In this document: positions 4,553 to 37,847 of the stretch, piece after piece
Numbering within the stretch: position 1 is the first letter of the stretch
Layout: every line of letters begins with the position of its first letter
Assembly (NCBI GenBank): GCA_964527995.1
Contig: CAZGRP010000025.1
Coordinates: 14,998 to 60,444 of the forward strand
Origin: an uncultured Cytophagia bacterium
Lineage (GTDB): Bacteria > Zhuqueibacterota > Zhuqueibacteria > Oceanimicrobiales > CAZGRP01
Length of the DNA stretch: 45,447 bases
Direction: 5' to 3'
The notes under the pieces: generated by a model
Told to the model about the DNA's origin: nothing
The model's database searches: none
The model's input: only the letters and a program-made list of their open reading frames with translations
Position numbers and translations under genes: made by a program

Positions 4553-5788
4553 TCAGGCGATGGTCGGCTGGATTCTCGGTGTCCTCGGAGCGGAGACTGC
4601 GAACATTTCACGCAAGATCAGGGTTACGGCACCGAGGAGTCCGGCATCCCGGCCCAGCTTCGAGGGCACGATGCGCACGGGCTTCTCAGCGCTCAAGAAG
4701 TAGTATTTCGAAACCTCGTCCCGGAGAGGGCCGAAGTAAGCTTCGCCAGCCTCCACGATGTCGCTGTTGATGATGATGGTTTCCACGTCGAGCACGTTCA
4801 TGAGATTGCCGAGGGCCTTGCCGAGCTTTCTGGCGGCACGCTCGATGATCTCCTCGGCCCGGTCGTCCCCGGCGCGCAGGGCTTTGAGCAGACAGCCGAC
4901 GTCGAGTTTATCCGGCTGCTGGTCGCATAGTTCCGCCAGCATTGGACTCGGTCGAGAACGGGCATCCTCCAGCATCGCGGCCAGAGAAGCCACCGTCTCC
5001 AGACAACCCCGCTTTCCGCAGCCGCACGGCTTGCCGTCCTGCTCCACCACCATATGTCCAATCTCGCCGGCAATGCCACGATAGCCGTCGTACAGCTCCC
5101 TGTTCAAGACGATGCCGGCGCCGACGCCTACCTCCACGTCCACGCTGATGAAGTGGGCCATACCGCTCCGCCTGCCATGCCACATCTCGGCGAGGGCGCA
5201 GGTGCGCGCGTCGTCCTGGATGATCACGGGGAGCCCCAGCTCGCGCGAAAGATCGGGCGCCAGCGGCACTTTGTTCCAGCCGGCCAGGTTCGCCGCGATG
5301 GCGACAACGCCGGTCTCGGTGTGCACGAGCCCCGGCACAGCCACTCCGACACCGAGCACGCGCTCCCGCCTGACCTTGCTCTCAGCAAGCACCTGGCGCA
5401 CCGTCGCCGTCATCTGCTTCAGAACGGTTCCATAGCCGCTCAGCGGGTCGATTTCAGTCTGCCGCTCGGCTCGCAGCGTGAATGTCAAATCGGCCACTCC
5501 GACACGCATGCGGTCGGGAGTCAGGTCGACACCGACAGCGTAGGCACCGTCGGGATTCAACTCGACCAGCCGCGGCGGCCGGCCACCGGTGGAAACCCCC
5601 TCACCCAGTTCGCGCAGAAAACCATCCTGCACAAGCCCGTCGACAATCTTCAATACGGCCGGCAGGCTCAGCTTGGTTCTCTTGGCGATGTCTGCTCTGG
5701 AGATAGGCCCCCTCTCCCTCACCAGGCGCAGGATCAGCGACCGGTTCAGGTTCTTGAGCAGTCGCGGTTTACTTCCCAGTTGATGCAT
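4553..5788 (-). CDS. ROK-family transcriptional regulator (NagC/XylR/Mlc type)
   Basis: 411 aa. N-terminal winged-HTH ('ISRADIAKRTKLSLPAVLKIVDGL'), ROK sugar-kinase-like fold, Zn motif 'GHMVVEQDGKPCGCGKRGCLE'. An AT-rich palindromic operator sits in its own promoter (5863..5881). Confidence 0.8.
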   Translation of the reverse strand: MHQLGSKPRLLKNLNRSLILRLVRERGPISRADIAKRTKLSLPAVLKIVDGLVQDGFLRELGEGVSTGGRPPRLVELNPDGAYAVGVDLTPDRMRVGVADLTFTLRAERQTEIDPLSGYGTVLKQMTATVRQVLAESKVRRERVLGVGVAVPGLVHTETGVVAIAANLAGWNKVPLAPDLSRELGLPVIIQDDARTCALAEMWHGRRSGMAHFISVDVEVGVGAGIVLNRELYDGYRGIAGEIGHMVVEQDGKPCGCGKRGCLETVASLAAMLEDARSRPSPMLAELCDQQPDKLDVGCLLKALRAGDDRAEEIIERAARKLGKALGNLMNVLDVETIIINSDIVEAGEAYFGPLRDEVSKYYFLSAEKPVRIVPSKLGRDAGLLGAVTLILREMFAVSAPRTPRIQPTIA

Positions 5789-5860: not shown

Positions 5861-5900
5861 CTAACTTAACCAAGTTAACTTAGGGAACGCAAAAAATCAA
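5861..5900 (-). promoter_or_regulatory. ROK-gene promoter: A-tract, TTGATT (5900..5895), 17 bp spacer, TAACTT (5877..5872), with overlapping operator AACTTAACCAAGTTAACTT (5863..5881; contains the perfect 10-bp palindrome AAGTTAACTT)
   Basis: Read directly on the minus strand upstream of the ROK start (5788). The palindrome half-site doubles as the -10 element. Confidence 0.5.
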
Positions 5901-11827: not shown

Positions 11828-13033
11828 TCACTTCCCTTGCAGTTGCTGCTCGACGGCGTCGAGGCCCGCGAGCAGATTGCCGGTATGGTCGAGCAGGCGC
11901 TCGATCGTGCCAAACCTTCGCCACTCGAGGATGCGGTCGATGCCGTAGAACTCACCCCACAGCCGCTTCAGCTCCGCCACCAGCCGAGCCCTCTGTGCGG
12001 CGGGAAGCCTGTCTGTCTGGCTTTTCAGGCTTTGGTAGCGGGCCTCGAACCTGGTCAGGGCTTCGTTCAGCTCCTTGATCCGCCGGTGCCCGGTGGTGTC
12101 CGGCGGAGCCTGGCCGCCTTCGAAGATCTCGGTCAGCACTCGCCCTGTGGCGTCCCTCGGCGGCTCGATTCCCAGGACCCGAGCCATGGTCGGGACGATG
12201 TCGATGGATTCGGCATAGTCGAACTCGGCCCCCTGGCGGACGCCCGGCCCAACGACCACCAGCGGTGCCCGCCAACTATCTGGGTCGGCGTACGGGTGCC
12301 AGCCGCCGTCCGCCTGGCCATGGTCCGCGGTCAAGAAGATGTAGGTCGAGTCAAGGCGGCCCGTAGCATCCAGCCAGTCCACGAAGGCACCGAGCAACGA
12401 ATCGGCACGCGCGGCAGCGCTACGGTAGGGCGAGCCCGGCGCCCAAATGTTGTGGCGCCAGGGAACGTCCTCCTGCGTGCTGTAGGAAAGGTAGCCGGCG
12501 GCTCCGGTATTCTGAAGGTGAATGCGTACGAACCGCGGCTTCCCGTGCTCGATGAAGATCTGTGCCCAGAAGAGGGCATCCCGGTCGCGCCCCGGCTTCA
12601 TGAACGACAGGGCATATCCGACATCGAGCGACCGATACGCCAGGCTGTTGGTGGCGTGGGCCGTCGCTCGCCCCGGGATCGCCTGCGAGAAGAGCGGTTG
12701 CTTTGGCCGAAGAAAGATGGTGCCGGCCATGAGCACGACATTCGGGATCGAGCTGGTGTACGCCTCGCCCCAGCTTCCGCTCTGCGGATGAGCCGGCAAG
12801 ATGTGGTACAGCTCACGGAAGTAGCTGCCGCGCGACATCAGGCGGTGCAGGTTCGGCAACTCGAGCCGGGCCGGCGCCTTGTAGCTGAGGCCGTCGATGA
12901 TGAACAGAATCGCTGTCGTGCCGCGCTCCTGCGCTGGAGATGGCCTCGGCTGCCCCGCCACGATAAGCCCGGCTACCAGGGGCAGAGTGATCCACTTTTC
13001 CCGGACTCTCTGCGACCTGAGCAGTGACCACAT
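11828..13033 (-). CDS. AlkP-superfamily / NPP-like phosphoesterase, secreted (paralog 3)
   Basis: 401 aa. Signal-like N-terminus. 'ILFIIDGLSY' and 'FLTADHGQADGGWHPY' (DHG metal site) are typical of PF01663-like enzymes. Lies 21 bp downstream of the GHL10 gene on the same strand. Confidence 0.5.
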   Translation of the reverse strand: MWSLLRSQRVREKWITLPLVAGLIVAGQPRPSPAQERGTTAILFIIDGLSYKAPARLELPNLHRLMSRGSYFRELYHILPAHPQSGSWGEAYTSSIPNVVLMAGTIFLRPKQPLFSQAIPGRATAHATNSLAYRSLDVGYALSFMKPGRDRDALFWAQIFIEHGKPRFVRIHLQNTGAAGYLSYSTQEDVPWRHNIWAPGSPYRSAAARADSLLGAFVDWLDATGRLDSTYIFLTADHGQADGGWHPYADPDSWRAPLVVVGPGVRQGAEFDYAESIDIVPTMARVLGIEPPRDATGRVLTEIFEGGQAPPDTTGHRRIKELNEALTRFEARYQSLKSQTDRLPAAQRARLVAELKRLWGEFYGIDRILEWRRFGTIERLLDHTGNLLAGLDAVEQQLQGK

Positions 13034-13054: not shown

Positions 13055-14803
13055 TTACTGCCGGACGCCAGCCCTGCGCCCCCGGCGTAGGATCGTGATC
13101 GCCCACAGGAGCAAGAACAGCGCCGCCGCACCAACAGCCAGAAACTCGTTGCGCCGGGCGGCGGCCAGCCGCTTCTCGAGGCGACGGAGTTGGCCGATGC
13201 TCAATTCCGCCGCCGGACGCGCTTCGAAGGGCTCAACGCTTGGGGTGGCGAAAATCTCTTCCAGGGCCGGCCACAACTTCTTGCGCGAGATCCCACCCCC
13301 GTCGAAGATCACCACGCCTTCCCCTCCACCCTTGCGCACCGCCTCGATGACCTGCTTCACCTTCTCGCCCGGATAGTACCCGGCAGGTGGATCGGCCCGG
13401 AAAGCCTGCACCGCCTGGATGAGGGCACTCACCTGGTCGGTGCCTGCAGACGGCGACAGTTCGGCAAGTCGTGAAGAGATCGCCTTCTCAGACTCGGGTG
13501 CGAACTGGGCCAGCCGGTCGCGGATCTGCTCAAATCCTTGCCGCAGCGTCCGCAGCCGCCGGCGGCGATCGCGTCGGGGCTTCGTCTCCCATCCCTGAAG
13601 CTCGGTGAGGATGTCCCGCAGCGGCTGGTCTTGCTCGCGGAAGATGTAGTGAACGTCCAACCCGACGGAGAGGTTGGCGAGACCTTTGGACCAGCGCATT
13701 TCGTAGCGGGTGTACTCTTCGAGCTGTTTCAGGAAGGTCTGCCAGTCTGTGAGCGGAAAATGGCTGCGGTACACCATCGGCATCATGATATCGATCCATG
13801 GGGCGAAGTTCGTCCACCGCTGGCCGATGAAGCGGCCGCTGGCGGTGGGATTCTTGAAGACGGCCGCCGACATCTCGATGTCGGGCTTGATAGCTTTGGC
13901 CCGTTCCCAGGCTTCGCGCACAAACCGGGTGATGGCATCGCTGCGGTAGGTGTAGAAGAAGTAGTCCAGGTCGCTGGGGCCCTGAGGCATGTAGCTACCG
14001 GTGAGCAGGAACCGTGCTTTAGCCTTGCGATCCCACTTCTGCCAGTCTTTCGGCTTGACGGTCGGATCCGACCACCAGTTGGCTTCGGGGTTGGGAAGCG
14101 TGGACACCACTGGATATCGGACGTCGGGGAAGGCGTCGTAAGAGAAATGGTTGTACTTCATGACATCCTGCAGGAAGTCGTCGTCAAAGCTGTAGCCGTC
14201 GGGAGCGACGTCGCCCGGGTAGCGCACGTAGTCGTGGTGGATGCCGTCGACATCGTACTTGCGCACAATCTCCTCGATCAGTGGTAGCAGGTACTGATCC
14301 GTGTAGCCCGGACGCTGAGCCGGACTCACCCAGGTGATGTAGTAGGGACGGCCGCCGCTCAGAAACTCGGACGTCGTCGGTTTGCCCTCGGCGTTGACCA
14401 TCAACCATTCAGGGTGCTTCTTGAGCACGGGGTTGTCGGGGCCTTCGGTGAAGTCGCACAACCAGGCATGCAGTTTGATGCCGGCGGCGTGCGACTCGCG
14501 CACCATGGCCGCCAGCGGATCGAAATCCCGGTAGTTCTCGGCGATCATCTCCGGGTTGAGATCGCTGTGGAAAAAGAGTCGGCCGCGCGTATTCTTCACA
14601 TCCATGACGATCACGTTGATGTGGGCCTTCTTGACGTGCTGCACAAAGGCACGCGCCGTGGAGTCATTGGTGATCAAACCGGGTGGATTCAGCCAGACGG
14701 CACGCCCCTCGATGACGGTCTCGCGGTCCTGAGCGCCGACCCGAGCGACCACACCAGTCAGGGCAAGCACAACGATGCTCCCCAGGACAAGCTCTTTTCT
14801 CAC
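13055..14803 (-). CDS. GHL10 (DUF187, YngK-like) glycoside-hydrolase-like TIM-barrel protein, secreted
   Basis: ORF 13055..14881 (-). 'DPLAAMVRESHAAGIKLHAWL' and 'KYDVDGIHHDYVRYPGD' match GHL10 family blocks. The ORF-track start (TTG at 14881) lies inside the plus-strand -35 TTGACA. Start re-placed at GTG 14803, preceded by AAGGAGG-N5, giving signal peptide 'MRKELVLGSIVVLALTGVVARVGAQ'. Confidence 0.6.
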   Translation of the reverse strand: MRKELVLGSIVVLALTGVVARVGAQDRETVIEGRAVWLNPPGLITNDSTARAFVQHVKKAHINVIVMDVKNTRGRLFFHSDLNPEMIAENYRDFDPLAAMVRESHAAGIKLHAWLCDFTEGPDNPVLKKHPEWLMVNAEGKPTTSEFLSGGRPYYITWVSPAQRPGYTDQYLLPLIEEIVRKYDVDGIHHDYVRYPGDVAPDGYSFDDDFLQDVMKYNHFSYDAFPDVRYPVVSTLPNPEANWWSDPTVKPKDWQKWDRKAKARFLLTGSYMPQGPSDLDYFFYTYRSDAITRFVREAWERAKAIKPDIEMSAAVFKNPTASGRFIGQRWTNFAPWIDIMMPMVYRSHFPLTDWQTFLKQLEEYTRYEMRWSKGLANLSVGLDVHYIFREQDQPLRDILTELQGWETKPRRDRRRRLRTLRQGFEQIRDRLAQFAPESEKAISSRLAELSPSAGTDQVSALIQAVQAFRADPPAGYYPGEKVKQVIEAVRKGGGEGVVIFDGGGISRKKLWPALEEIFATPSVEPFEARPAAELSIGQLRRLEKRLAAARRNEFLAVGAAALFLLLWAITILRRGRRAGVRQ

Positions 14804-14863
14804 GGAAACCTCCTTCTCCTCGGCCGGAAGATGATGGGTTCGCTGCGACGGCAGATTGGTAGG

Positions 14864-14941
14864 CGATTTTTTTCTTGACAATGAGGGAAAAGAAAACTAA
14901 ACTTCGTTAACAAAGTTAATCCAAAAGTTGGCACTTGTCAA
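14864..14941. promoter_or_regulatory. divergent back-to-back promoters (plus: TTGACA 14875..14880, 17 bp spacer, TAAACT 14898..14903; minus: TTGACA 14941..14936, 17 bp spacer, TAACTT 14918..14913) sharing the central 18-bp operator AACTTCGTTAACAAAGTT (14900..14917)
   Basis: Read directly. Lies between the GHL10-NPP operon (minus) and the SSF-AKR operon (plus). A/T tracts lie upstream of both -35 elements. Confidence 0.5.
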
Positions 14942-14999
14942 GTGAAAAAATTCTCCCGCCGACGAATCTGCGGGAGAGCGACGACGGGAGAGCCGCTCC

Positions 15000-16772
15000 A
15001 TGACCTTTACCGACTGGACCATCATCGCCCTCTATAGCGTGTTCATGCTGTTTCTTGGTGGGTACTTTACGAAACGCGCCGGCCAAAGCCTGGACGACTA
15101 CTTTCTCGCCGGGCGCGATCTGCCATGGTGGGTGCTGGGGATGTCGGCTGTCGCCTCCTACAGTGACGCTGGCATTGCACCTGCTGTGACCATGCTGGTT
15201 TTTACCGGTGGGCTGCTGGGAAACGGCATCTGGTGGCTGACGTTTCTGATATGGATGCCTCTGGTGGCGGTGGTCTGGTCCAAGCTGTGGCGGCGCCTGA
15301 ACATTCTGACCACCGCAGAATTCATCGAGGTGCGCTACTCCGGGCGGGCGGCCACGGCCTTCCGCGGCATCTACGCCGTGTTCATGGCCTTCGGCTTCGG
15401 TGTCGTTCTCATGGGGTATGTGACGAGCTGGCTCAGCAGCGCCCTTGGCCCGATTCTGGGCTGGTCGCCGCTGGCAATGATGCTGACCTTCGGCGGCCTG
15501 GCGATGATCTACACGACAGCGGCAGGTCTCTTCGGTGCCGCCTACAGCGACGTGCCACAGTTCGTCATCTTCTTCGTGGGCAATTTGATCTTCGTGCCCA
15601 TCCTGATCTCGGCTGTCGGAGGCATGGATGCAGTCTACGACGGCATCCTGCGGATGCGCGGCCCGGAGATGACAGCCGAATTCCTGAAGGTGATCCCGCC
15701 GTCGTCCTCGCTGCCGACCGTCACGATTCTGGCTTTCGTGGTGCAGGGGCTATTCTTCGCTGCCTCACCCGCAGGCGGTGAGGGCTTCACCGCCCAGCGC
15801 TTCATGGCGGCACGCAACGAGTTCCACGCTCAGATCGGACAGTTGCTCAACGCCCTGCTCACCCTGGTGGTCCGCGTCGCCCCTTTTCTGTTCATGGGAA
15901 TGGCCGCGGCCGCCATCTACCCTCCCGACGCTTTCGCCGAGCCGGCCGAGATCTGGGGAACCCTGGTCTCCAGGTACTCGGTGGTAGGGTTGACCGGGTT
16001 GTTGGTTTCCGGGATCATGGCCGCCTACATGTCAACCATCGACACGGAGATCAACTGGAGCGCTTCCTACTTCGTCAACGACATCTACAAGCGGTTTATC
16101 AAAACCGACGCCAGCCGCCAGCACTACGTCCTCGTCAGCCGGGTGACCAGCGTCCTGCTTCTTGTGCTTGCCGTGCTCTTGGCTTATTTTCTGGTCAAGG
16201 GAATGACGGCCTGGTTCCTGTTCATCAACTCAGTGATGGTGGCTTTCTTGTTGCCGCTGAGCTGGCTGCGTTTTTTCTGGTGGCGGCTCAACATCTACGG
16301 TGAGGCCGCCGCCATCGTCGGCAGCCTGCCGCTGGGGTACTTCATCTGGTTTGGCCTGGACTTCCGCGATCGGCCCTTCTGGCAGGGATTCCTGCTCCTC
16401 TTTATTGTGGGTTGGATCGTGATCCTGGCGGTGACCTACCTGACGCGGCCGGAGCGGCCAGAGACATTGCGCGAGTTCTACCTGCGCTGCCGGCCACCGG
16501 GACTCTGGGGTCCGGTGGTACGAACCCTGCCCGGCCATAGCACCGAAGAGGTTCACCGCGAAACCATCGCCGATATCGTGGACAGTGGCTTGGGCATTCT
16601 TTTCTGCGGCGGCAGCATCCTTGCCAGCATCAGCCTGCTGGGCCGGCACTGGATCACCGCCATCGTCGCCGTGCTGGTGACAACGGCAGCGCTGTGGCTG
16701 TTCGTTCTGCGCTGGAAGAAACGCGGGGTGTTTGGAGCGCTGTCGCGTAACTACCGCGAAGGTCCGTCATAG
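15000..16772 (+). CDS. sodium:solute symporter family (SSF/SLC5-like) transporter
   Basis: 590 aa, ~13 predicted TM segments. N-terminal 'DYFLAGRDLPWWVLGMSAVASYSDAG' is the SSF signature region. Confidence 0.75.
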   Translation: MTFTDWTIIALYSVFMLFLGGYFTKRAGQSLDDYFLAGRDLPWWVLGMSAVASYSDAGIAPAVTMLVFTGGLLGNGIWWLTFLIWMPLVAVVWSKLWRRLNILTTAEFIEVRYSGRAATAFRGIYAVFMAFGFGVVLMGYVTSWLSSALGPILGWSPLAMMLTFGGLAMIYTTAAGLFGAAYSDVPQFVIFFVGNLIFVPILISAVGGMDAVYDGILRMRGPEMTAEFLKVIPPSSSLPTVTILAFVVQGLFFAASPAGGEGFTAQRFMAARNEFHAQIGQLLNALLTLVVRVAPFLFMGMAAAAIYPPDAFAEPAEIWGTLVSRYSVVGLTGLLVSGIMAAYMSTIDTEINWSASYFVNDIYKRFIKTDASRQHYVLVSRVTSVLLLVLAVLLAYFLVKGMTAWFLFINSVMVAFLLPLSWLRFFWWRLNIYGEAAAIVGSLPLGYFIWFGLDFRDRPFWQGFLLLFIVGWIVILAVTYLTRPERPETLREFYLRCRPPGLWGPVVRTLPGHSTEEVHRETIADIVDSGLGILFCGGSILASISLLGRHWITAIVAVLVTTAALWLFVLRWKKRGVFGALSRNYREGPS

Positions 16773-16839
16773 CGGTGGCCTTTGCACGCGGCATGGGCGG
16801 CGTACAAAATGAATTTCACCTGAAGGAGGAGGTTGACGA

Positions 16840-17817
16840 ATGGAATACCGCAAGCTCGGCAAATGGGGGGTGCGTGTAAGCACGCTGGGTGTGGGCAGCT
16901 ATCTCACCCTCGGCCATCATGTGCCTGAAGACGTGGGGAGCGAGATCGTCAGACAGGCCTACGAGGCGGGTATCAACTTCTTCGACACTGCCAACGCCTA
17001 CAACCGTGGCGAAGCGGAAAAGGCCTTGGGCAGGTACCTGGCGCCTTTTCCGAGAGACTCCTTTGTGCTGGCGTCCAAAGTCTGGGCTCCCATGGGTGAT
17101 GGCCCGAATGATCGCGGTTTGTCACGCAAGCACATCTTCGAGCAGTGCCACGCCAGCCTGAAACGGCTCAACACCGACTACCTCGACCTCTACCAGTGCC
17201 ACCGCTACGACCCCGACACTCCCCTGGAGGAAACCATCCGGGCCCTGGACGATCTGGTCCGGCAGGGAAAGATCCTCTACTGGGGGGTGAGCGAATGGAG
17301 TGCGGCCCAAATCACCGAGGCCCAGTCGTTCTGTGAACGCTGGGGCCTGAATCCACCAGTCTCCAATCAGCCACGTTACAGCCTTCTTTGGAGATACCCG
17401 GAAAAAGAAGTCTTTCCTGTCTGTCTTTCCAAAGGTCTGGGGCAGGTGGTGTTTTCACCACTGGCCCACGGAGTGCTGACGGGCAAGTACAAGGCGGGCG
17501 AAAAGCCGCCTCCCGGCACCCGCGCCGCTGACGACTCTCAGAACCGCATCATGATGGATCTCTATTTTCACGAAGACAAGCTTCGCAGAGTCGAGCAGAT
17601 GGGCGAAATCGCGGCGGAACTGAATTTGAGCACGGCGCAGCTGGCCATTGCCTGGATCCTGAAGAATCCCGCGGTCAGCAGTGTTATCCTCGGGGTGACG
17701 CGTCCCGAGCAATTGGCGGAGAACTTGAAAGCGGCAGAGGTCGCCCTGCCTGACGAGGTCATGGCTCGACTCGACGAGCTGTTTCCGCTCCCTGGTGCGT
17801 CTCCGGCGGCCCCATGA
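16840..17817 (+). CDS. aldo/keto reductase (AKR, Kv-beta/YghZ-like)
   Basis: 325 aa. 'GINFFDTANAYNRGEAE', 'VLASKV', 'IAWILKNPAVSSVILG' AKR motifs. RBS GAAGGAGGAGG upstream. Confidence 0.8.
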   Translation: MEYRKLGKWGVRVSTLGVGSYLTLGHHVPEDVGSEIVRQAYEAGINFFDTANAYNRGEAEKALGRYLAPFPRDSFVLASKVWAPMGDGPNDRGLSRKHIFEQCHASLKRLNTDYLDLYQCHRYDPDTPLEETIRALDDLVRQGKILYWGVSEWSAAQITEAQSFCERWGLNPPVSNQPRYSLLWRYPEKEVFPVCLSKGLGQVVFSPLAHGVLTGKYKAGEKPPPGTRAADDSQNRIMMDLYFHEDKLRRVEQMGEIAAELNLSTAQLAIAWILKNPAVSSVILGVTRPEQLAENLKAAEVALPDEVMARLDELFPLPGASPAAP

Positions 17818-17897
17818 AACGACGCCGTTCCTCCCTGGCTCACGAGCCAGAAAAGCCGCCCGGGCCGTCCTCTCGCACACCTGCCCGCCAGGATACA

Positions 17898-18870
17898 TCA
17901 GCGACGGGGCGATCCCAGGGCGTCGAGCAGCCCCTTCATGTAGCCCACGGCGTAGAGTCGGCCGAGCATCATGTAGCCAGGCGCCTCGTTCGCTTCCTCT
18001 TCGAGCGTCGGCACGTGGTCGGGTCGGATCGGTCCGTCGAAGCCAACCTCCTCATAGGCTCGCATGGCCTCCGCCATGTCCGTCTTGCCCTCGTCGTGGA
18101 AGGTCTCCTCGAAGGCCGGAACGCTGCCACGGATGTCCCGGAAGTGAGCAAAGAAGATCTTCCCTTGCTCTCCGAAGTGGCGGATGGCCGAGGGTACATC
18201 GACGCCCTCCATGGCTCCGAAGGTCCCCTGGCACAGTGTGATGCCGTTGAAGTCACTCGGCGGCACCATCTCGAGCACGCGGTCGCACGCCTCAATGCTG
18301 CGGAGGATGCGGGCCACTCCACGGATCGGTGAAATCGGCGGATCGTCCGGATGCAGGGCCAGCTTCACTCCTGCCTCCTCAGCGACCGGAACCACTCGCT
18401 TCAGGAAGTACTCGAGGCTATCCCATAATTGCTCCTCCGACACTTCCCCGGCCCAGGTCAGGGGAGCTTTCTCCATCAGGCGGTGGTCGTAGCTGGTGAC
18501 CAGGGCGCCGCCGCGGCCACGCGTGGTCGTGGAGGTCCGCAACCAGTTGAACACGGCCATGAAGTTGTAGCAGAGCACCGGGATGCCGGCTGCGCCCATG
18601 TTGCGGACGGACTGGCAAAAGTTCTCCAGGTCCTCATCCCTTCCCGGCAGGCCGAGTTTGATCCGGTCGGAGATCGGGATGCTCTCGATGACTGACAGGG
18701 TCAGCCCGGCATCCTCCACCCTCTTGCGCAGTTGCAGCAAAGGCAGGAACTCCCAAACCGGTCCCCGCTGCGCCTCCGGTAACACGGTGACGATGTCGGT
18801 GACGCCGATCTGCCTGGCAAGCCGCAGGTTAGATTCAGAAAGCGAACGCAGGAACAAAGCGATTCTCATG
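17898..18870 (-). CDS. uxuA: mannonate dehydratase
   Basis: ORF 17898..18956 (-). Strong similarity in motif order to UxuA ('CYNFM.VF.W.RT', 'LALHPDDPP', 'GPIRPDH', 'GYMMLGRLYA'). Start placed at ATG 18870, with GAGGAG 6 nt upstream. Confidence 0.8.
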
Positions 18871-19088
18871 CTCATCTCCTCATCGAAATTGGCCCTGCTA
18901 CGCGAACCCGTATAGCTACAAACCGCCGCCGCCCCTTCGTCGTTCCAACCGCTCACTTCCCTGAAGAAGGGCGTCCCTCGTCGTCTGTGGCCGCTCTCCG
19001 GTGACCCTACGCCATGGCCTCAACGGGTCTGCGACTCTGATACCTTAGGAGCCAGCCGCTCCCGGGCTCACCACTGCTTCCGCAGGAG

Positions 19089-20732
19089 TCAGCGCAGGAG
19101 CATCAGCTTACGCGTGATCGTTTTCCCCCCGGCGACCACCAGGCGGTATAGATACACCCCACTGGCGACCAGTCGGCCCGCCCCATCCCGGCCGTCCCAC
19201 AGCAAGGTGTGGCGACCGGGACCTTGCCGTCCGTGGAACAGCGTACGGACGACCTCACCGCGGACGTTGACGATGGAGACGGTCACATCGCCGGCTTCCG
19301 GCAGCTCGTAGCCAATGCGTGTCCCGGCATTGAAGGGATTCGGATAGTTCCGCTCGAGTCGAACCTGCTGCGGCAGCCGATGGTCTGGGCGCTCGCTGAC
19401 ATAGGTGGGGCGCCCGCGAAGCAGATTGCGGATCATGCGCTGCATGTTTTCGTAGCGAATAAAAGTTCCACCGAAGGAGATCGAGCCGACCGAGAACACA
19501 TAGCCACCACCGGGATGGTCGTAATAGACCATGTTGGCGCCGCCACCGTTCGGGTTCTGTCCCTTGGCCAGCAGAACGACATTGGCCGGCGAGTTGTCCG
19601 GGTCGATCTTGTCGGTCTCCCAGCCGCTGGCGCCACCACCGTTGAATCCCAGAAAGCCGAAACGGCTGCCGCTTGTCAAGCCGGTACCCTCGAAGACCCA
19701 ATGATCCCCGTTCACAACCTGATAGGCGGCCCAGGTGTTATAGCCCGCACTTGTGTACCGGACACCGAGGATGCGCGCCTGCGGCCGGCCGACCTCTCTC
19801 CACTGGCCGCCCTGTTCCCCGGTTTGCACATGCACAGCGCGGTCCTTGCGTACCTCCATGACCGTACCGGTGGAGTCGAAGGTGGCCTTCCAGTAGAGGC
19901 CGTTGCCACCGAGATAGAGCAGGTTGCCGCCATGGTTCAGGAAGCGCTGCAGGCCATCCATCATGTTGGCCGTCCAGTACTCCGGATGTGTGTTGAGAAT
20001 CACGGTCTGGTATCCGTCGAAGAGGGTGGTATCGGCATGAAGATCGGCGTCCGCGTACAGGTCGTAGTCGTAGCCGTTTTTCTCGAGCCACGACAGCACC
20101 CAAAGCTCGGCGCGAGTGAGATGGTTGATGCCGCTGGCCACAGGGTTGGCACGCCGATTCGGGCGCTCGAAGGAAACGAATTTGGCGTAGTCGTCGGACG
20201 GCACATAGAGCGACTTTCCGCCCCAGGCATTGTAGGCGTTCCAGGTGTTGGTGGAGGCAAGCACCGCGATGGCGGCCGAAGGGCGCCTGGCGGGCTTGAC
20301 GATGAAGGTGACATAGATGGCACCGCCGTTGGAGTCCTTGAGATAAGCGGAGTAAAGGCCGCTGCGGGCGCTGTCCGGGATCCATAGCGCGAAGGTCGTC
20401 TGCCAGCCACATCCCACCTTCCAAACCGAGTCTGGGATGTCTTGAAACATGCCGGGTATACTTCCCACGACGGCAAGCGTGTCCACCCGCTCTCCAAACC
20501 GCATGAGGATGGCAGAAAAGGAGTCGGCGGCCGTGCTCGTCTTGAAGTACACCGAGTCGCCCTGGGATACGCTGATAGTTGCGGTGTACCCGCTCATCAC
20601 CTCAGATGTCAGCTCTTCCGCCATGACACCTTGGGGCTCTCCTTCGCCCTTCGCTCGCGCCGACGGCGGATCAACCGCAGCAAGAACTGTCAAGAGAGCA
20701 GTGGCCAGCACGGCCGCAGTCCGCATTCTCAT
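19089..20732 (-). CDS. secreted T9SS-sorted protein, DmfA2-like / class-I glutamine-amidotransferase-like fold (function unknown)
   Basis: 547 aa. Signal peptide 'MRMRTAAVLATALLTVLAAV'. 'NHGGNLLYLGGNGLYW' resembles the N,N-dimethylformamidase large-subunit family block. C-terminal ~80 aa ('NYPNPFNAGTRIGYELPEAGDVTVSIVNVRGEVV..GVYLYRLV') is a TIGR04183-type T9SS sorting domain. Confidence 0.45.
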   Translation of the reverse strand: MRMRTAAVLATALLTVLAAVDPPSARAKGEGEPQGVMAEELTSEVMSGYTATISVSQGDSVYFKTSTAADSFSAILMRFGERVDTLAVVGSIPGMFQDIPDSVWKVGCGWQTTFALWIPDSARSGLYSAYLKDSNGGAIYVTFIVKPARRPSAAIAVLASTNTWNAYNAWGGKSLYVPSDDYAKFVSFERPNRRANPVASGINHLTRAELWVLSWLEKNGYDYDLYADADLHADTTLFDGYQTVILNTHPEYWTANMMDGLQRFLNHGGNLLYLGGNGLYWKATFDSTGTVMEVRKDRAVHVQTGEQGGQWREVGRPQARILGVRYTSAGYNTWAAYQVVNGDHWVFEGTGLTSGSRFGFLGFNGGGASGWETDKIDPDNSPANVVLLAKGQNPNGGGANMVYYDHPGGGYVFSVGSISFGGTFIRYENMQRMIRNLLRGRPTYVSERPDHRLPQQVRLERNYPNPFNAGTRIGYELPEAGDVTVSIVNVRGEVVRTLFHGRQGPGRHTLLWDGRDGAGRLVASGVYLYRLVVAGGKTITRKLMLLR

Positions 20733-20782
20733 GAGTCCTCCTTTGCGCTTGAGAGTTCATCGCGGATGGAGTCTTCGGAATT

Positions 20783-20870
20783 CGATTTTTTGCTTGACAA
20801 TGAGAAAGGAAATGTTATTTTCGGACTAACTTAACTAAACTAACTTAGTTATTCGTTTTCAAACTGTCAA
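20783..20870. promoter_or_regulatory. divergent promoters (minus: A-tract, TTGACA 20870..20865, 17 bp spacer, TAAGTT 20847..20842; plus: conserved module with TTGACA 20795..20800) flanking operator-like AACTT/AAGTT repeats (20825..20852, including AACTTAGTT)
   Basis: Read directly. Lies between the T9SS-protein-uxuA unit (minus) and the alpha/beta-hydrolase ... Gfo unit (plus). The first 22 nt of the plus-strand module (CGATTTTTTGCTTGACAATGAG) match 14864..14885 at 21 of 22 positions. Confidence 0.45.
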
Positions 20871-20900
20871 GGATTTTTCCAGAGAAGCGGAGTTGAGCAA

Positions 20901-22154
20901 ATGCAGCGACGCGCTTTTCTGAAGGCGGCGGTTGCGGGCGTCCTCGGCGCACGTCTGCGCGCGGCTGGGAAAAAGTCGCAGCTGTGGGCCGGCGAGGAGC
21001 CACCGGCGCAACAGCTGCGCTACATCCGCTGGAGCTGGCAGCGCTGGCTGCAGATCACCGGAGCAAAACGCCCGGGGATTCGTACCGACCAGAGCGGCAA
21101 GCGGGAACTGGTCGACTTGCTGCGCACTGGTGGCAAGGAACTCAAAACGGCGGAAGCGTGGGAACACAGGCGCGGCGAGATCGAGGCGGTGCTGCGCGAG
21201 TTCCTCGGGCCGCCTCCCTCCGAGAGACCGCCGCTCGACGCCAGAGTTGTTGAGGAACGCCGGTTTGTGGATTTTATCCGCCGGAAGGTGATTTTCACGT
21301 CGGAGCCAGGGGAAGTAATTCCGTCCTATCTTTTCGTTCCTACCGAGCTGAAGGGGCGGGCGCCGGCGATGCTCACACCGCATCAGACCAACTACGACGG
21401 CAAACTCGAGCCGGCAGGTATCCGTGGCGAGCCGTCACTGGCCCTGGCCGTGCAACTGGCGCAGCGCGGATACGTCACTCTGGCCGCTGACGCTATTGCG
21501 TTTGGGGAGCGCCACGAGCCGTCTTCGGGACATTACGGCGACGCGATTGAGTTTTACTACCGCCACCCGCAGTGGTCAGTGATGGGCAAGATGAACTGGG
21601 ACAAGGGGCGGGCCATCGACTATCTTCAGAGTCTGGAGTTTGTTGACGCCGACCGCATCGGCACCATCGGTCATTCGCACGGCGCGTACGGCTCCCTCTG
21701 GGCTGCAGCTTTCGATCCGCGCATCAAGGTTGTCGTGGCGAGCTGTGGTTTCGACACCTTTCGTGCCGACGGCAACACCTGGCGCTGGTCGCACGGCACT
21801 GCGCTGCTTCCGAAGCTCGGCTTCTACCTGGGCGATGCCGGTGCAAAGCTCAGTCTCGAAAACTTCCAGGACTACTGGGTGGAGGAAGTCACCGAGGTGC
21901 CGTTCGACTACCATCATGTGCTCTCCCTCATCGCCCCACGGCCGACCTTCTATGCCGTGGCTTTGGACGACGAGGTTTTCCCGCATGCCGAAAGCACAGT
22001 GGAGGCCATCAACCTGACACGCAAGGTCTACCAGCTCTACGGCGCCGACGAGCGCGTGGCCGTGCATACCTTCCCTGGCGGGCACCGCTTTCCAGCATCG
22101 GTTCGGAGGCAGGCCTTCGCCTGGCTGGACCGGTGGTTGATGGGGGATGGTTGA
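20901..22154 (+). CDS. Tat-exported alpha/beta-hydrolase (dienelactone-hydrolase / esterase-like)
   Basis: 417 aa. Twin-arginine signal 'MQRRAFLKAAVAGVLGA'. Nucleophile elbow 'GHSHGAYGS'. Asp/His residues further downstream complete a plausible triad. Confidence 0.5.
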   Translation: MQRRAFLKAAVAGVLGARLRAAGKKSQLWAGEEPPAQQLRYIRWSWQRWLQITGAKRPGIRTDQSGKRELVDLLRTGGKELKTAEAWEHRRGEIEAVLREFLGPPPSERPPLDARVVEERRFVDFIRRKVIFTSEPGEVIPSYLFVPTELKGRAPAMLTPHQTNYDGKLEPAGIRGEPSLALAVQLAQRGYVTLAADAIAFGERHEPSSGHYGDAIEFYYRHPQWSVMGKMNWDKGRAIDYLQSLEFVDADRIGTIGHSHGAYGSLWAAAFDPRIKVVVASCGFDTFRADGNTWRWSHGTALLPKLGFYLGDAGAKLSLENFQDYWVEEVTEVPFDYHHVLSLIAPRPTFYAVALDDEVFPHAESTVEAINLTRKVYQLYGADERVAVHTFPGGHRFPASVRRQAFAWLDRWLMGDG

Positions 22155-37529: not shown

Positions 37530-37617
37530 GTGGTGCCGGGGGCGGGACTCGAACCCGCACGGGGGTGAACCCCACTGGATTTTGAGTCCAGCGCGTCTAC
37601 CAGTTCCACCACCCCGG
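37530..37617 (-). tRNA. tRNA-Leu (anticodon CAA), class II with long variable arm, CCA encoded
   Basis: Reverse complement folds as a cloverleaf. Acceptor stem GCCGGGG/CCCCGGC. Anticodon stem CTGGA/TCCAG with loop CTCAAAA. Variable arm TGGGGTTCACCCCCGT. T-arm GCGGG-TTCGAGT-CCCGC. 3' ACCA. Confidence 0.85.
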
Positions 37618-37629
37618 CAAATGCAGTGC

Positions 37630-37658
37630 AAAATTACGCAATGGCGGAAACAATGTCA
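37630..37658 (-). promoter_or_regulatory. near-consensus sigma70 promoter for tRNA-Leu (TTGACA 37658..37653, 17 bp spacer, TAATTT 37635..37630; tRNA 5' end 12 nt downstream)
   Basis: Read directly on the minus strand immediately upstream of the tRNA. Confidence 0.55.
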
Positions 37659-37847
37659 AGTGCCAATCGACGCAATTGCCAGCAAATCGAGTGCCTCCTC
37701 GTGCGCCACCCCGCACGCCTGACCTCAACCACCTGCCAGCAGAAAATCTGTGACCGCCCTCCCCGCCCACGCGATGACCGCAGCGGCTCTCCTGCATCTA
37801 TGGCTGAATCGCTCCGCGCAAAATCGCAGCCTGAGATCTCCCCAAAA

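Follow-up and report, generated by a model that had tools for sequence, protein, structure and literature searches.

Repressors of the ROK family bind 23-bp palindromes and are commonly autoregulated (PMC3553997), and TT/AA at +/-5,6 are the sole invariant positions of the sites bound by two of them, NagC and Mlc (PMC4288165). On the side of RNA polymerase, UP elements are A/T-tracts that are read via DNA shape, with a proximal subsite near -43 (PMC3326320). Divergent promoters that face or overlap each other form a class in the Beck and Warren classification, as summarized in PMC5175336.

In the 45,447-nucleotide stretch of DNA analyzed here (the window), the segments at 14864-14885 (CGATTTTTTTCTTGACAATGAG) and 20783-20804 (CGATTTTTTGCTTGACAATGAG) are identical at 21 of 22 bases and lie 5919 bp apart. 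On the plus strand, the first copy reads CGA, T7, C, TTGACA, ATGAG, and the second reads CGA, T6G, C, TTGACA, ATGAG. We consider it likely that this 22-mer constitutes the upstream half of a housekeeping, sigma-70-type promoter, with a T-run, a perfect -35 box and five bases at the start of the spacer, within a face-to-face promoter pair repressed by a ROK protein. The pair is ordinary, textbook bacterial gene regulation and not a new kind of element.

The 22-mer pair and its rightward promoters

Allowing up to three mismatches on both strands of the window, we found no matches to the 22-mer beyond the two copies, and none of 100 dinucleotide shuffles of the window contained one. Under a stricter null, in which only the two AT-rich intergenic regions were shuffled (300 trials), the best 22-mer identity averaged 14.5 and reached at most 17, compared with the observed 21. 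These data confirm the near-identity that an earlier sequence-only reading of this DNA had pointed out and show that it exceeds chance, and they answer, for the window, its question of dispersal, as two copies are all there are. Once the T-run and CTTGACA are granted as promoter consensus, the remaining nine positions still match at eight (P about 1.8e-4). The similarity ends at both edges of the 22-mer: upstream of CGA, the flanks of site 1 and site 2 are unrelated in both comparisons made (z = -0.5 and 0.1), and downstream the likeness reappears only at the operator and the opposite -35 box.

At site 1, the 22-mer occupies about -46 to -25 of an inferred rightward promoter, P(ssf), a sigma-70-type TTGACA-17-TAAACT (14875-14903, 10/12) predicted to drive the plus-strand genes SSF (15000-16772) and AKR (16840-17817). 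At site 2, it forms part of P(gce), likewise an inferred rightward promoter, which reads TTGACA-16-TATTTT, has an extended -10 TG at 20813-20814 (20794-20821, 10/12) and would drive a plus-strand esterase-like gene (20901-22154), the first of a long operon reaching a heparinase-like gene, together with the co-directional genes downstream. Both -35 hexamers match TTGACA at 6/6 positions, both -10 boxes have the form TAnnnT at a spacing of 16 to 18 bp, and both promoters are among the best sigma-70-type matches of the window, with an equal score at only one other site in 40 kb. The matches of the promoter scan fall on both copies. The previously proposed interpretation as a T-tract plus -35 box is borne out, and so is the orientation toward plus-strand operons (SSF-AKR and esterase-like). 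The inferred leaders are ~90 nt for SSF and ~73 nt for the esterase-like gene, each with a ribosome binding site. The analysis shows the sequence features with their positions, orientations and statistics, as well as their conservation in one orthologue; from these we infer the binding of RNA polymerase and repressor, the start sites and the origin of the additional identity.

The E. coli proximal UP consensus is A-rich. In both copies, A/T bases run from about -44 to -37, where a proximal alpha-CTD subsite would be expected. In our proposed mechanism, sigma region 4 would read the TTGACA of the module and the T-run would serve as a proximal UP subsite, its narrow minor groove contacted by one alpha C-terminal domain; transcription would then proceed rightward into the SSF-AKR unit at site 1 or into the long esterase-to-heparinase-like operon at site 2. 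In the 45 kb, TTGAC(A/T) lies 1 to 4 nt downstream of an A/T-tract of 5 nt or more at only six sites, all of them in AT-rich intergenic islands; an identifiable gene lies ahead of five, and the sixth points to the left edge of the window. The source organism uses canonical promoter signals, since the promoter of its tRNA-Leu gene reads CTTGACA-17-TAATTT.

Operators, opposed promoters and the gene cluster

The intergenic regions around the two copies are divergent, and each holds a second CTTGACA promoter that points leftward, 62 bp (site 1) or 72 bp (site 2) from the rightward one. The upstream part of the leftward promoter reads TTTTTT-CAC-TTGACA at site 1 (14936-14950, minus strand), where it would drive the GHL10-family glycosidase-like gene (13055-14803) and a sulfatase-like gene (11828-13033), and AAAAA-TCC-TTGACA at site 2 (20865-20878, minus strand), where it would drive a DMFA2_C-like gene (19089-20732) and UxuA (17898-18956), all four on the minus strand. 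The corresponding -10 boxes, TAACTT (14918-14913) and TAAGTT (20847-20842), match TATAAT at only 3/6 positions, below the threshold of the promoter scanner, and each lies inside a NagC/Mlc-type operator located between the two promoters.

Operator 1 (CTTCGTTAACAAAGTTAATCCAA, 14902-14924, 23 bp), for which a second register begins at 14893, has TT at -6/-5 and AA at +5/+6, overlaps the rightward -10/+1 and holds the leftward -10 box. Operator 2 (CTAACTTAACTAAACTAACTTAG, 20826-20848, 23 bp), which scores 18/20 against the palindrome consensus CTAASTTAAC-N3-GTTAASTTAG, covers the rightward +1 region and likewise holds the leftward -10 box. The distances from module end to operator start, 16 and 21 nt, agree with the sequence-only reading, which had placed both copies just upstream of AACTT/AAGTT-type operators. 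A third operator (CTAACTTAACCAAGTTAACTTAG, 5861-5883) lies upstream of a ROK gene and overlaps the -10 of its promoter, TTGATT-17-TAACTT; its score of 20/20 carries a circularity, as this very segment served to derive the consensus. The fourth (34-56) is located just downstream of a minus-strand promoter, TTGACA-17-TATATT (90-62, 11/12), that would control a gene beyond the left edge of the window. Operator-like 23-mers scoring at least 15/20 occur at four places in the window versus 0.17 in local shuffles. The operator at an orthologous locus, L083, scores 19/20, and TT at -6/-5 with AA at +5/+6 is present in five of five operators (the four window sites and L083).

The candidate repressor of this regulon is encoded on the minus strand at 4556-5788. 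The protein has an N-terminal winged helix (HTH_24/MarR at residues 14-59) and a PF00480 ROK domain, and aligns over its full length to the NagC and Mlc models. Because its bit scores are far below the equivalog cut-offs (210 vs 650 for NagC; 193 vs 530 for Mlc), it is ruled out as an orthologue of either. The repressor that would act at both sites is probably the product of this gene, which is also predicted to be autoregulated.

Considering the layout of these elements, we propose that both regions are face-to-face bidirectional promoters with one common ROK-type operator, an arrangement absent from the sequence-only reading. Predicted from hexamer positions, the opposing start sites overshoot each other by about 5-8 nt, which would place both promoters under one regulator. 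Because one operator covers the rightward -10/+1 and supplies the leftward -10, a single repressor could silence both directions; one ROK dimer bound between the opposed promoters could shut both until a sugar-derived inducer appears.

The sugar-utilization cluster appears to be under one ROK-type repressor, and the regulated genes suggest use of a uronate or glycosaminoglycan-like polysaccharide and not of amino sugars. A T9SS sorting tail indicates that the source is probably an FCB-group bacterium. The gene start of GHL10 can be corrected from TTG 14881 to GTG 14803, as had been argued before: AGGAGG is found 5 nt upstream of GTG 14803, and the product then begins with a signal peptide (MRKELVLGSIVVLALTGVVARVGA/QD). 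The extension of this reading frame through the module is an artefact.

Origin of the shared bases

Because both promoters are at the generic optimum, a T-run plus CTTGACA, about 14 of the 22 identical bases need no further explanation. The generic consensus fails to account for the identity at eight of the nine non-consensus positions. These other 8 bases (CGA and ATGAG) are specific to the pair and more likely reflect shared descent or short-patch copying between promoters of the regulon than a separate binding site. At L083, the locus of the single close orthologous promoter (protein identity, 76-78 %), the noncoding match is exactly 20783-20871 (80 % over 89 nt), running from the first base of the module to the opposite -35 box; the coding regions match at 70-76 %, and the flanks are unalignable. 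Presence in orthologous promoters, which the sequence-only reading had proposed as a check, holds for this one, which keeps 19/22 module bases. It retains CGA and AAT, as well as CGATTTTTTTCTTGACAAT and the GAAATGTTA extended -10 region, and its GAG is changed to AAA, ATGAG thus reading ATAAA.

Site 1 itself, as the sequence-only reading had likewise missed, is a quasi-palindrome (14840-14981), the arms of which, 14840-14881 and 14935-14981, flank the operator (z = 7.6, 0/2000 shuffles); its parts outside the tract and the -35 box still give z = 4.0. Because its two promoters are inverted copies of each other over 43-48 nt, the promoter arms appear to have been copied at this locus, and an inverted duplication is present within site 1.

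How the two rightward promoters came to share more than the consensus is a question of origin only, and any copying would be compatible with promoter function. A tentative answer, to which we give a minority chance, is that duplication or gene conversion carried a short promoter segment from one regulatory region of the regulon to another, for example, during an inversion that split an ancestral GHL10-SSF operon. The eight identical non-consensus positions and the inverted copies at site 1 fit such an event, as do the rarity of CGA (2/75) and GAG (1/105) as companions of the core elsewhere and the closer likeness of the paralogous copies (21/22) than of site 2 and its L083 orthologue (19/22). 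Moreover, GHL10 and SSF abut co-directionally in a distant relative, and SSF orthologues at 75-77 % identity lack the site-1 promoter. However, neutral flanks should still resemble each other after a recent block duplication, and contiguous similarity into the nonfunctional flanks is absent; the spacers and -10 boxes are unrelated, the spacer lengths differ, and the distance between the opposed promoters differs by 10 bp. The "recently duplicated promoter cassette" of the sequence-only reading therefore finds no support as a block. After an old duplication, in turn, only selection could have kept CGA and ATGAG, but GAG is changed in the orthologue. A further-reaching version, which seems unlikely to us, treats the 22-mer as a portable promoter core, a discrete unit physically copied between sites 1 and 2 and, in inverted orientation, within site 1. 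Template switching at the palindromic operator, or duplication of a short patch there, would have done the copying during an inversion that split an ancestral co-directional GHL10-SSF operon into divergent units that each kept a promoter. If true, this would be a concrete case in which an operon was split, its promoter duplicated and the promoters evolved in concert.

The other explanations assign the shared bases a different function. CGA and/or ATGAG could form the half-site of an extra activator that overlaps the -35 box in a class II-like manner at both rightward promoters, as the identity of the bases flanking the consensus elements and the CGA and AAT retained at L083 might suggest. We regard this as improbable: the activator half-site that had been suspected in ATGAG is ATAAA in the orthologue and its GAG follows the core in just 1 of 105 unrelated promoters, the module lacks a dyad partner, pairing only with the opposite -35 block, both motifs are missing from the window's four leftward or other TTGAC promoters, and no candidate activator gene adjoins either site. 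The reverse complement of the module might act at the RNA level, since, given the inferred leftward starts, the predicted 5' leaders of the GHL10 and DMFA2_C-like mRNAs would both carry CUCAUUGUCAAG(A/C)AAAAAAUCG. This is very improbable, and weakly refuted, as the leaders fold no better than shuffles (z = +1.6, -0.8 and +0.2), the structural context of the segment differs each time, and Rfam gave no matches in either region. Finally, the exact 22-mer is also found in two unrelated MAGs, which might suggest a dispersed repeat or the remnant of a mobile element with no relation to promoters, but we consider such an origin extremely improbable. The T-tract/-35 core string has one occurrence apiece in 78 unrelated genomes and in no fewer than 120 metagenome contigs, never above a single copy per locus, and its matches are mostly promoter-like, with TAnnnT at 16-18 nt in 39-45 % of the unique matches versus about 10-12 % in shuffles. 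Because it is single-copy in unrelated genomes and usually followed by a correctly spaced -10 box, the core is generic promoter sequence and not a mobile repeat. Terminal repeats and target duplications are absent from the two copies, as is any extended similarity; that there are only two copies in 45 kb and that their similarity stops at 22 nt speaks against a dispersed repeat, MITE or REP. The core string recurs as a promoter across many phyla.

Comparison with known systems

For the sigma-70-type promoters favored here, the likeness to E. coli rrnB P1-type promoters with a proximal UP subsite consists of a perfect TTGACA, a predicted -10 box at 16-17 bp, with TG in one copy, and 7-8 nt of A/T immediately before the -35 box, the place of the proximal alpha-CTD subsite (PMC3326320). 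They differ in that the module has no distal A/T block at about -53 and in that its run, T-rich on the non-template strand, is centered near -40 and not -43. The only mildly unusual features are the 8-base extra identity and the quasi-palindromic form of site 1, both of them hints that promoters were copied while operons were rearranged.

For an uncultured bacterium with canonical TTGACA/TATAAT promoters, the analysis supplies a set of promoter and operator signals, and it outlines a candidate ROK regulon of four operators, six inferred promoters and a repressor with inferred autoregulation around a uronate or glycosaminoglycan-like polysaccharide cluster. The operator consensus and the promoter core could serve to annotate the remaining source genome.

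The opposed promoters resemble the face-to-face class of Beck and Warren, as that class is summarized, in the crossing of their predicted starts, which here derive from hexamers only. With the divergent nagE-nagBACD system of E. coli, controlled by NagC/Mlc, the locus shares a ROK repressor with an N-terminal winged helix, divergent sugar-utilization operons, 23-bp AT-rich quasi-palindromic operators with TT/AA at +/-5,6 and C/G at +/-11, and an operator before the regulator's own transcription unit. Whereas two operators are joined by a DNA loop in nagE-nagBACD, one operator per region would serve two face-to-face promoters here, and both the nonorthologous ROK protein and the predicted substrate set the cluster apart. 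The ROK regulons of Thermotogae (XylR, ChiR, BglR and others; PMC3553997) belong to a different phylum and use a different motif sequence, but there, too, 23-bp palindromes lie upstream of glycoside hydrolase and transporter operons, and the ROK genes are autoregulated.

A repeated module in two divergent gene regions

The near-identical pair of 22-mers described by the sequence-only reading was recovered in our analysis, with CGATTTTTTTCTTGACAATGAG at 14864-14885 (site 1) and CGATTTTTTGCTTGACAATGAG at 20783-20804 (site 2), both pointing rightward, identical at 21 of 22 positions, and 5919 bp apart. At up to three mismatches, the module matched only these two places on both strands of the 45,447 bases, and dinucleotide shuffles of the window gave zero matches. 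Since both sites lie within AT-rich islands of a window with 62 % G+C, a stricter null was chosen in which only the intergenic DNA of the two sites was shuffled; under it, the highest identity between 22-mers was 14.5 on average and 17 at most, versus the observed 21. These comparisons confirmed that the module pair is real and not due to chance. Each copy is composed of CGA, a 7-nt T-run (or T6G), C, TTGACA, and ATGAG, and spans roughly -46 to -25 from the inferred start sites.

Pfam assignments place the two copies between divergently transcribed genes, in a cluster for the use of polysaccharides and uronates. At site 1, a minus-strand gene of the glycosidase-like GHL10 family opposes a plus-strand SSF transporter and aldo-keto reductase, the nearest named SSF homologues being from KSB1 and Calditrichaeota MAGs. 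At site 2, minus-strand genes for a DMFA2_C-like secreted protein and UxuA oppose a plus-strand operon that begins with a glucuronyl-esterase-like hydrolase and continues with GlcNAc-2-epimerase-like, GFO/IDH/MocA, DUF4434, Nramp-like, and heparinase II/III-like genes. A T9SS (Por_Secre_tail) sorting domain in the DMFA2_C-like protein (19092-20732, minus strand) suggests that the source organism belongs to the FCB group.

The listed GHL10 ORF (13055-14881) has its TTG start inside the TTGACA of the module. The proposed relocation of this start to the GTG at 14803 is correct, with AGGAGG 5 nt upstream and a product whose N terminus, MRKELVLGSIVVLALTGVVARVGA/QD, is a typical signal peptide. Two nine-codon plus-strand ORFs beginning at the ATG of ATGAG (14881-14910, MREKKTKLR, and 20800-20829, MRKEMLFSD, each closed by a stop codon) were judged coincidental, because transcription is predicted to start downstream of that ATG, which has no ribosome binding site and is lacking in L083, the orthologous site-2 locus of a relative.

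Probable facing promoters around the module

A consensus promoter scanner placed TTGACA-17-TAAACT on module 1 (14875-14903) and TTGACA-16-TATTTT with an extended -10 TG on module 2 (20794-20821), each at 10/12; in the first 40 kb of the window, only one other site scored equally. The window has only six places where TTGAC[AT] comes within 1-4 nt after an A/T run of at least 5 nt. All are in AT-rich intergenic islands, with five facing an identifiable gene and the sixth facing the left edge of the window. An independent example of the host promoter consensus, CTTGACA-17-TAATTT, stands directly upstream of tRNA-Leu(CAA) (37531-37660, minus strand), and so the sigma-70 signals of this organism are canonical, with an A/T tract next to the -35 box. 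Such TTGACA/TATAAT promoters are unlike the Bacteroidota type, despite the FCB-type T9SS tail. The A/T tract of the module lies at the place of a predicted proximal UP-element subsite. UP elements are A- or T-tracts read by minor-groove shape, without base-specific contacts (PMC3326320).

Each region also contains a leftward CTTGACA with its own A/T tract (14936-14950 and 20865-20878, both minus strand), which faces the rightward one at a distance of 62 bp at site 1 and 72 bp at site 2. Between the facing promoters lies an operator-like 23-bp quasi-palindrome with the consensus CTAASTTAAC-N3-GTTAASTTAG; the leftward promoters, and the place of this element between facing promoters, were missed by the sequence-only reading. 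Each copy of the module makes up the T-tract and -35 portion of one sigma-70-type promoter, and both promoters belong to a single candidate ROK regulon.

An RNA role in the leftward leaders was rejected, as no stable or shared fold was found (z = +1.6, -0.8, and +0.2); the only Rfam family detected was tRNA, with none in these leaders. A strong hairpin, UCUCCCGCCGA...UCUGCGGGAGA (14952-14977), with no T-run after it, stands in the predicted 5' leader of the mRNA for the SSF transporter.

Conservation and origin of the shared bases

L083 was the only close relative found, with DMFA2_C-like and esterase-like proteins 76 % and 78 % identical, respectively, to those of the window. Its divergent gene arrangement is kept, and its intergenic sequence runs in the order gCGATTTTTTTCTTGACAATaaa, GAAATGTTA, operator CTAAGTTAACTTAATTAACTTAG, and AAACTGTCAAG. 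The noncoding BLASTN match covers exactly 20783-20871 (80 % over 89 nt); it starts where the module starts and stops at the final base of the opposite CTTGACA. Identity in the coding regions is 70-76 %, and the outer flanks cannot be aligned. These limits indicate that the conserved unit is the whole bidirectional promoter-operator core. The module is present in this orthologous promoter, with 19 of 22 bases kept and GAG changed to AAA. A resemblance of the L083 upstream flank to window site 1 in a MAFFT alignment was dismissed, since local alignment against shuffles was not significant (z = 1.2).

The module was absent from the SSF orthologues L081 and L082 (75-77 % identity), where SSF stands behind a different gene, and neither module nor operator was found in L208, L209, L210, and L211 (at most 60 % identity), whose genes lie inside co-directional operons. 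A look-up of the ROK gene matched only strain contigs of 2-7 kb, identical to the window. Strain loci L001, L002, and L212 had zero differences at sites 1 and 2, and L207 had a single difference, at position 30 of a compared 160-nt segment, in the region of the ROK promoter; all were uninformative on the module.

How did two promoters come to share 21 bases? A dispersed repeat would place copies at many positions; instead, the core query TTTTTTNCTTGACAATGAG gave 78 single matches in a genome collection, one per genome and in unrelated phyla, no locus with two core copies was among the matches listed, and on these matches and the two copies in the window this explanation was rejected. The related query CGATTTTTTNCTTGACAAT matched at least 120 unrelated metagenome contigs; the source's own contigs were not among the matches to either string. 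Among the unique matches listed, TAnnnT followed at 16-18 nt in 29/74 and 45/101 cases, respectively, versus 8.8 and 10.1 in shuffles. This recurrence across phyla, together with the -10 spacing, argues that the core is a generic strong-promoter string of independent origin. Its consensus share, the T-run plus CTTGACA, accounts for about 13-14 positions. The remaining nine are identical at eight (P ~1.8e-4), and the companions of the core in unrelated promoters, CGA in 2/75 and GAG in 1/105, match the uniform expectation. Several features make the recent block duplication of a promoter cassette proposed earlier unlikely: upstream of CGA there is no relation between the flanks (z = -0.5 and z = 0.1), the spacer and -10 box agree in neither sequence nor length, and downstream the two sites resemble each other (z = 4.1) only at the operator and at the facing -35 box. 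An activator half-site at ATGAG, the other proposal, is also improbable, as L083 has ATAAA and a dyad partner is lacking. Shared descent or short-patch copying is what remains for the eight-base extra identity, with some indirect evidence.

Exact copies of the 22-mer CGATTTTTTTCTTGACAATGAG occur once each in two unrelated MAGs (L035 and L051), which fits an independent origin of a consensus-like string. In a KSB1 MAG (L039 3905-3985, minus strand, JAFGOE010000033.1), an identical TTTTTTTCTTGACAATGAG (T7-CTTGACAATGAG) has TATAAT at 17 nt, followed by an AGTTAGT-N11-ACTAACT inverted repeat upstream of a 969-aa TonB-dependent-receptor-like gene. This repeat does not match the TT-N9-AA pattern and was taken as a coincidence rather than a ROK operator.

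Site 1 is itself a quasi-palindrome, built of two promoter arms (14840-14881 and 14935-14981) that repeat each other in inverted orientation (z = 7.6, 0/2000 shuffles). Their similarity goes on for about 25 nt outside the -35 box and its A/T tract (z = 4.0); this extended symmetry is absent at site 2 and in its L083 orthologue. The hairpin in the SSF leader overlaps the right arm. In a distant relative (L213 8276-11761, on the 216-kb contig JGI 3300033148; also L214), GHL10 and SSF, 43 % and 63 % identical to their divergent counterparts in the window, are read in the same direction, with the stop codon of one gene abutting the start codon of the next. Because the arms are inverted copies and these genes are co-directional in that one distant genome, divergent site 1 may be the product of an inversion in which a promoter arm was duplicated. 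Upstream of the L213 GHL10 lies a palindrome, TTAGTAA-TTT-TTACTAA, made of similar words in a different register. The eight-base identity and the palindromic site 1 suggest promoter copying, short of proof.

A candidate ROK regulon

Operator sites scoring at least 15/20 occur at four places in the window, versus 0.17 in local shuffles: 34-56, 5861-5883, 14893 with a second register at 14902-14924, and 20826-20848; the L083 operator is at 1811-1833. The site at 5861-5883, whose 20/20 score is circular because the consensus was derived from it, lies directly upstream of a ROK-family regulator gene (4556-5788, minus strand) with an N-terminal winged helix. At sites 1 and 2, the operator overlies the rightward -10/+1, and the predicted leftward -10 box (TAACTT and TAAGTT, respectively) falls within it, so that one bound repressor could block both directions. 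In this scenario, a single ROK repressor on the operator would shut both promoters of a face-to-face pair, an arrangement with an established classification (PMC5175336). Taken together, the five operators and the ROK gene outline a putatively autoregulated candidate ROK regulon for a uronate/glycosaminoglycan-like polysaccharide utilisation cluster.

Regulators of the ROK family commonly recognise palindromes of 23 bp and control their own genes (PMC3553997). All four window operators and that of L083 have TT at -6/-5 and AA at +5/+6, the only invariant positions of NagC/Mlc operators, and most have C or G at +/-11, as in high-affinity NagC sites (PMC4288165). The module pair is real but ordinary, a new instance of kinds of element that are already known.
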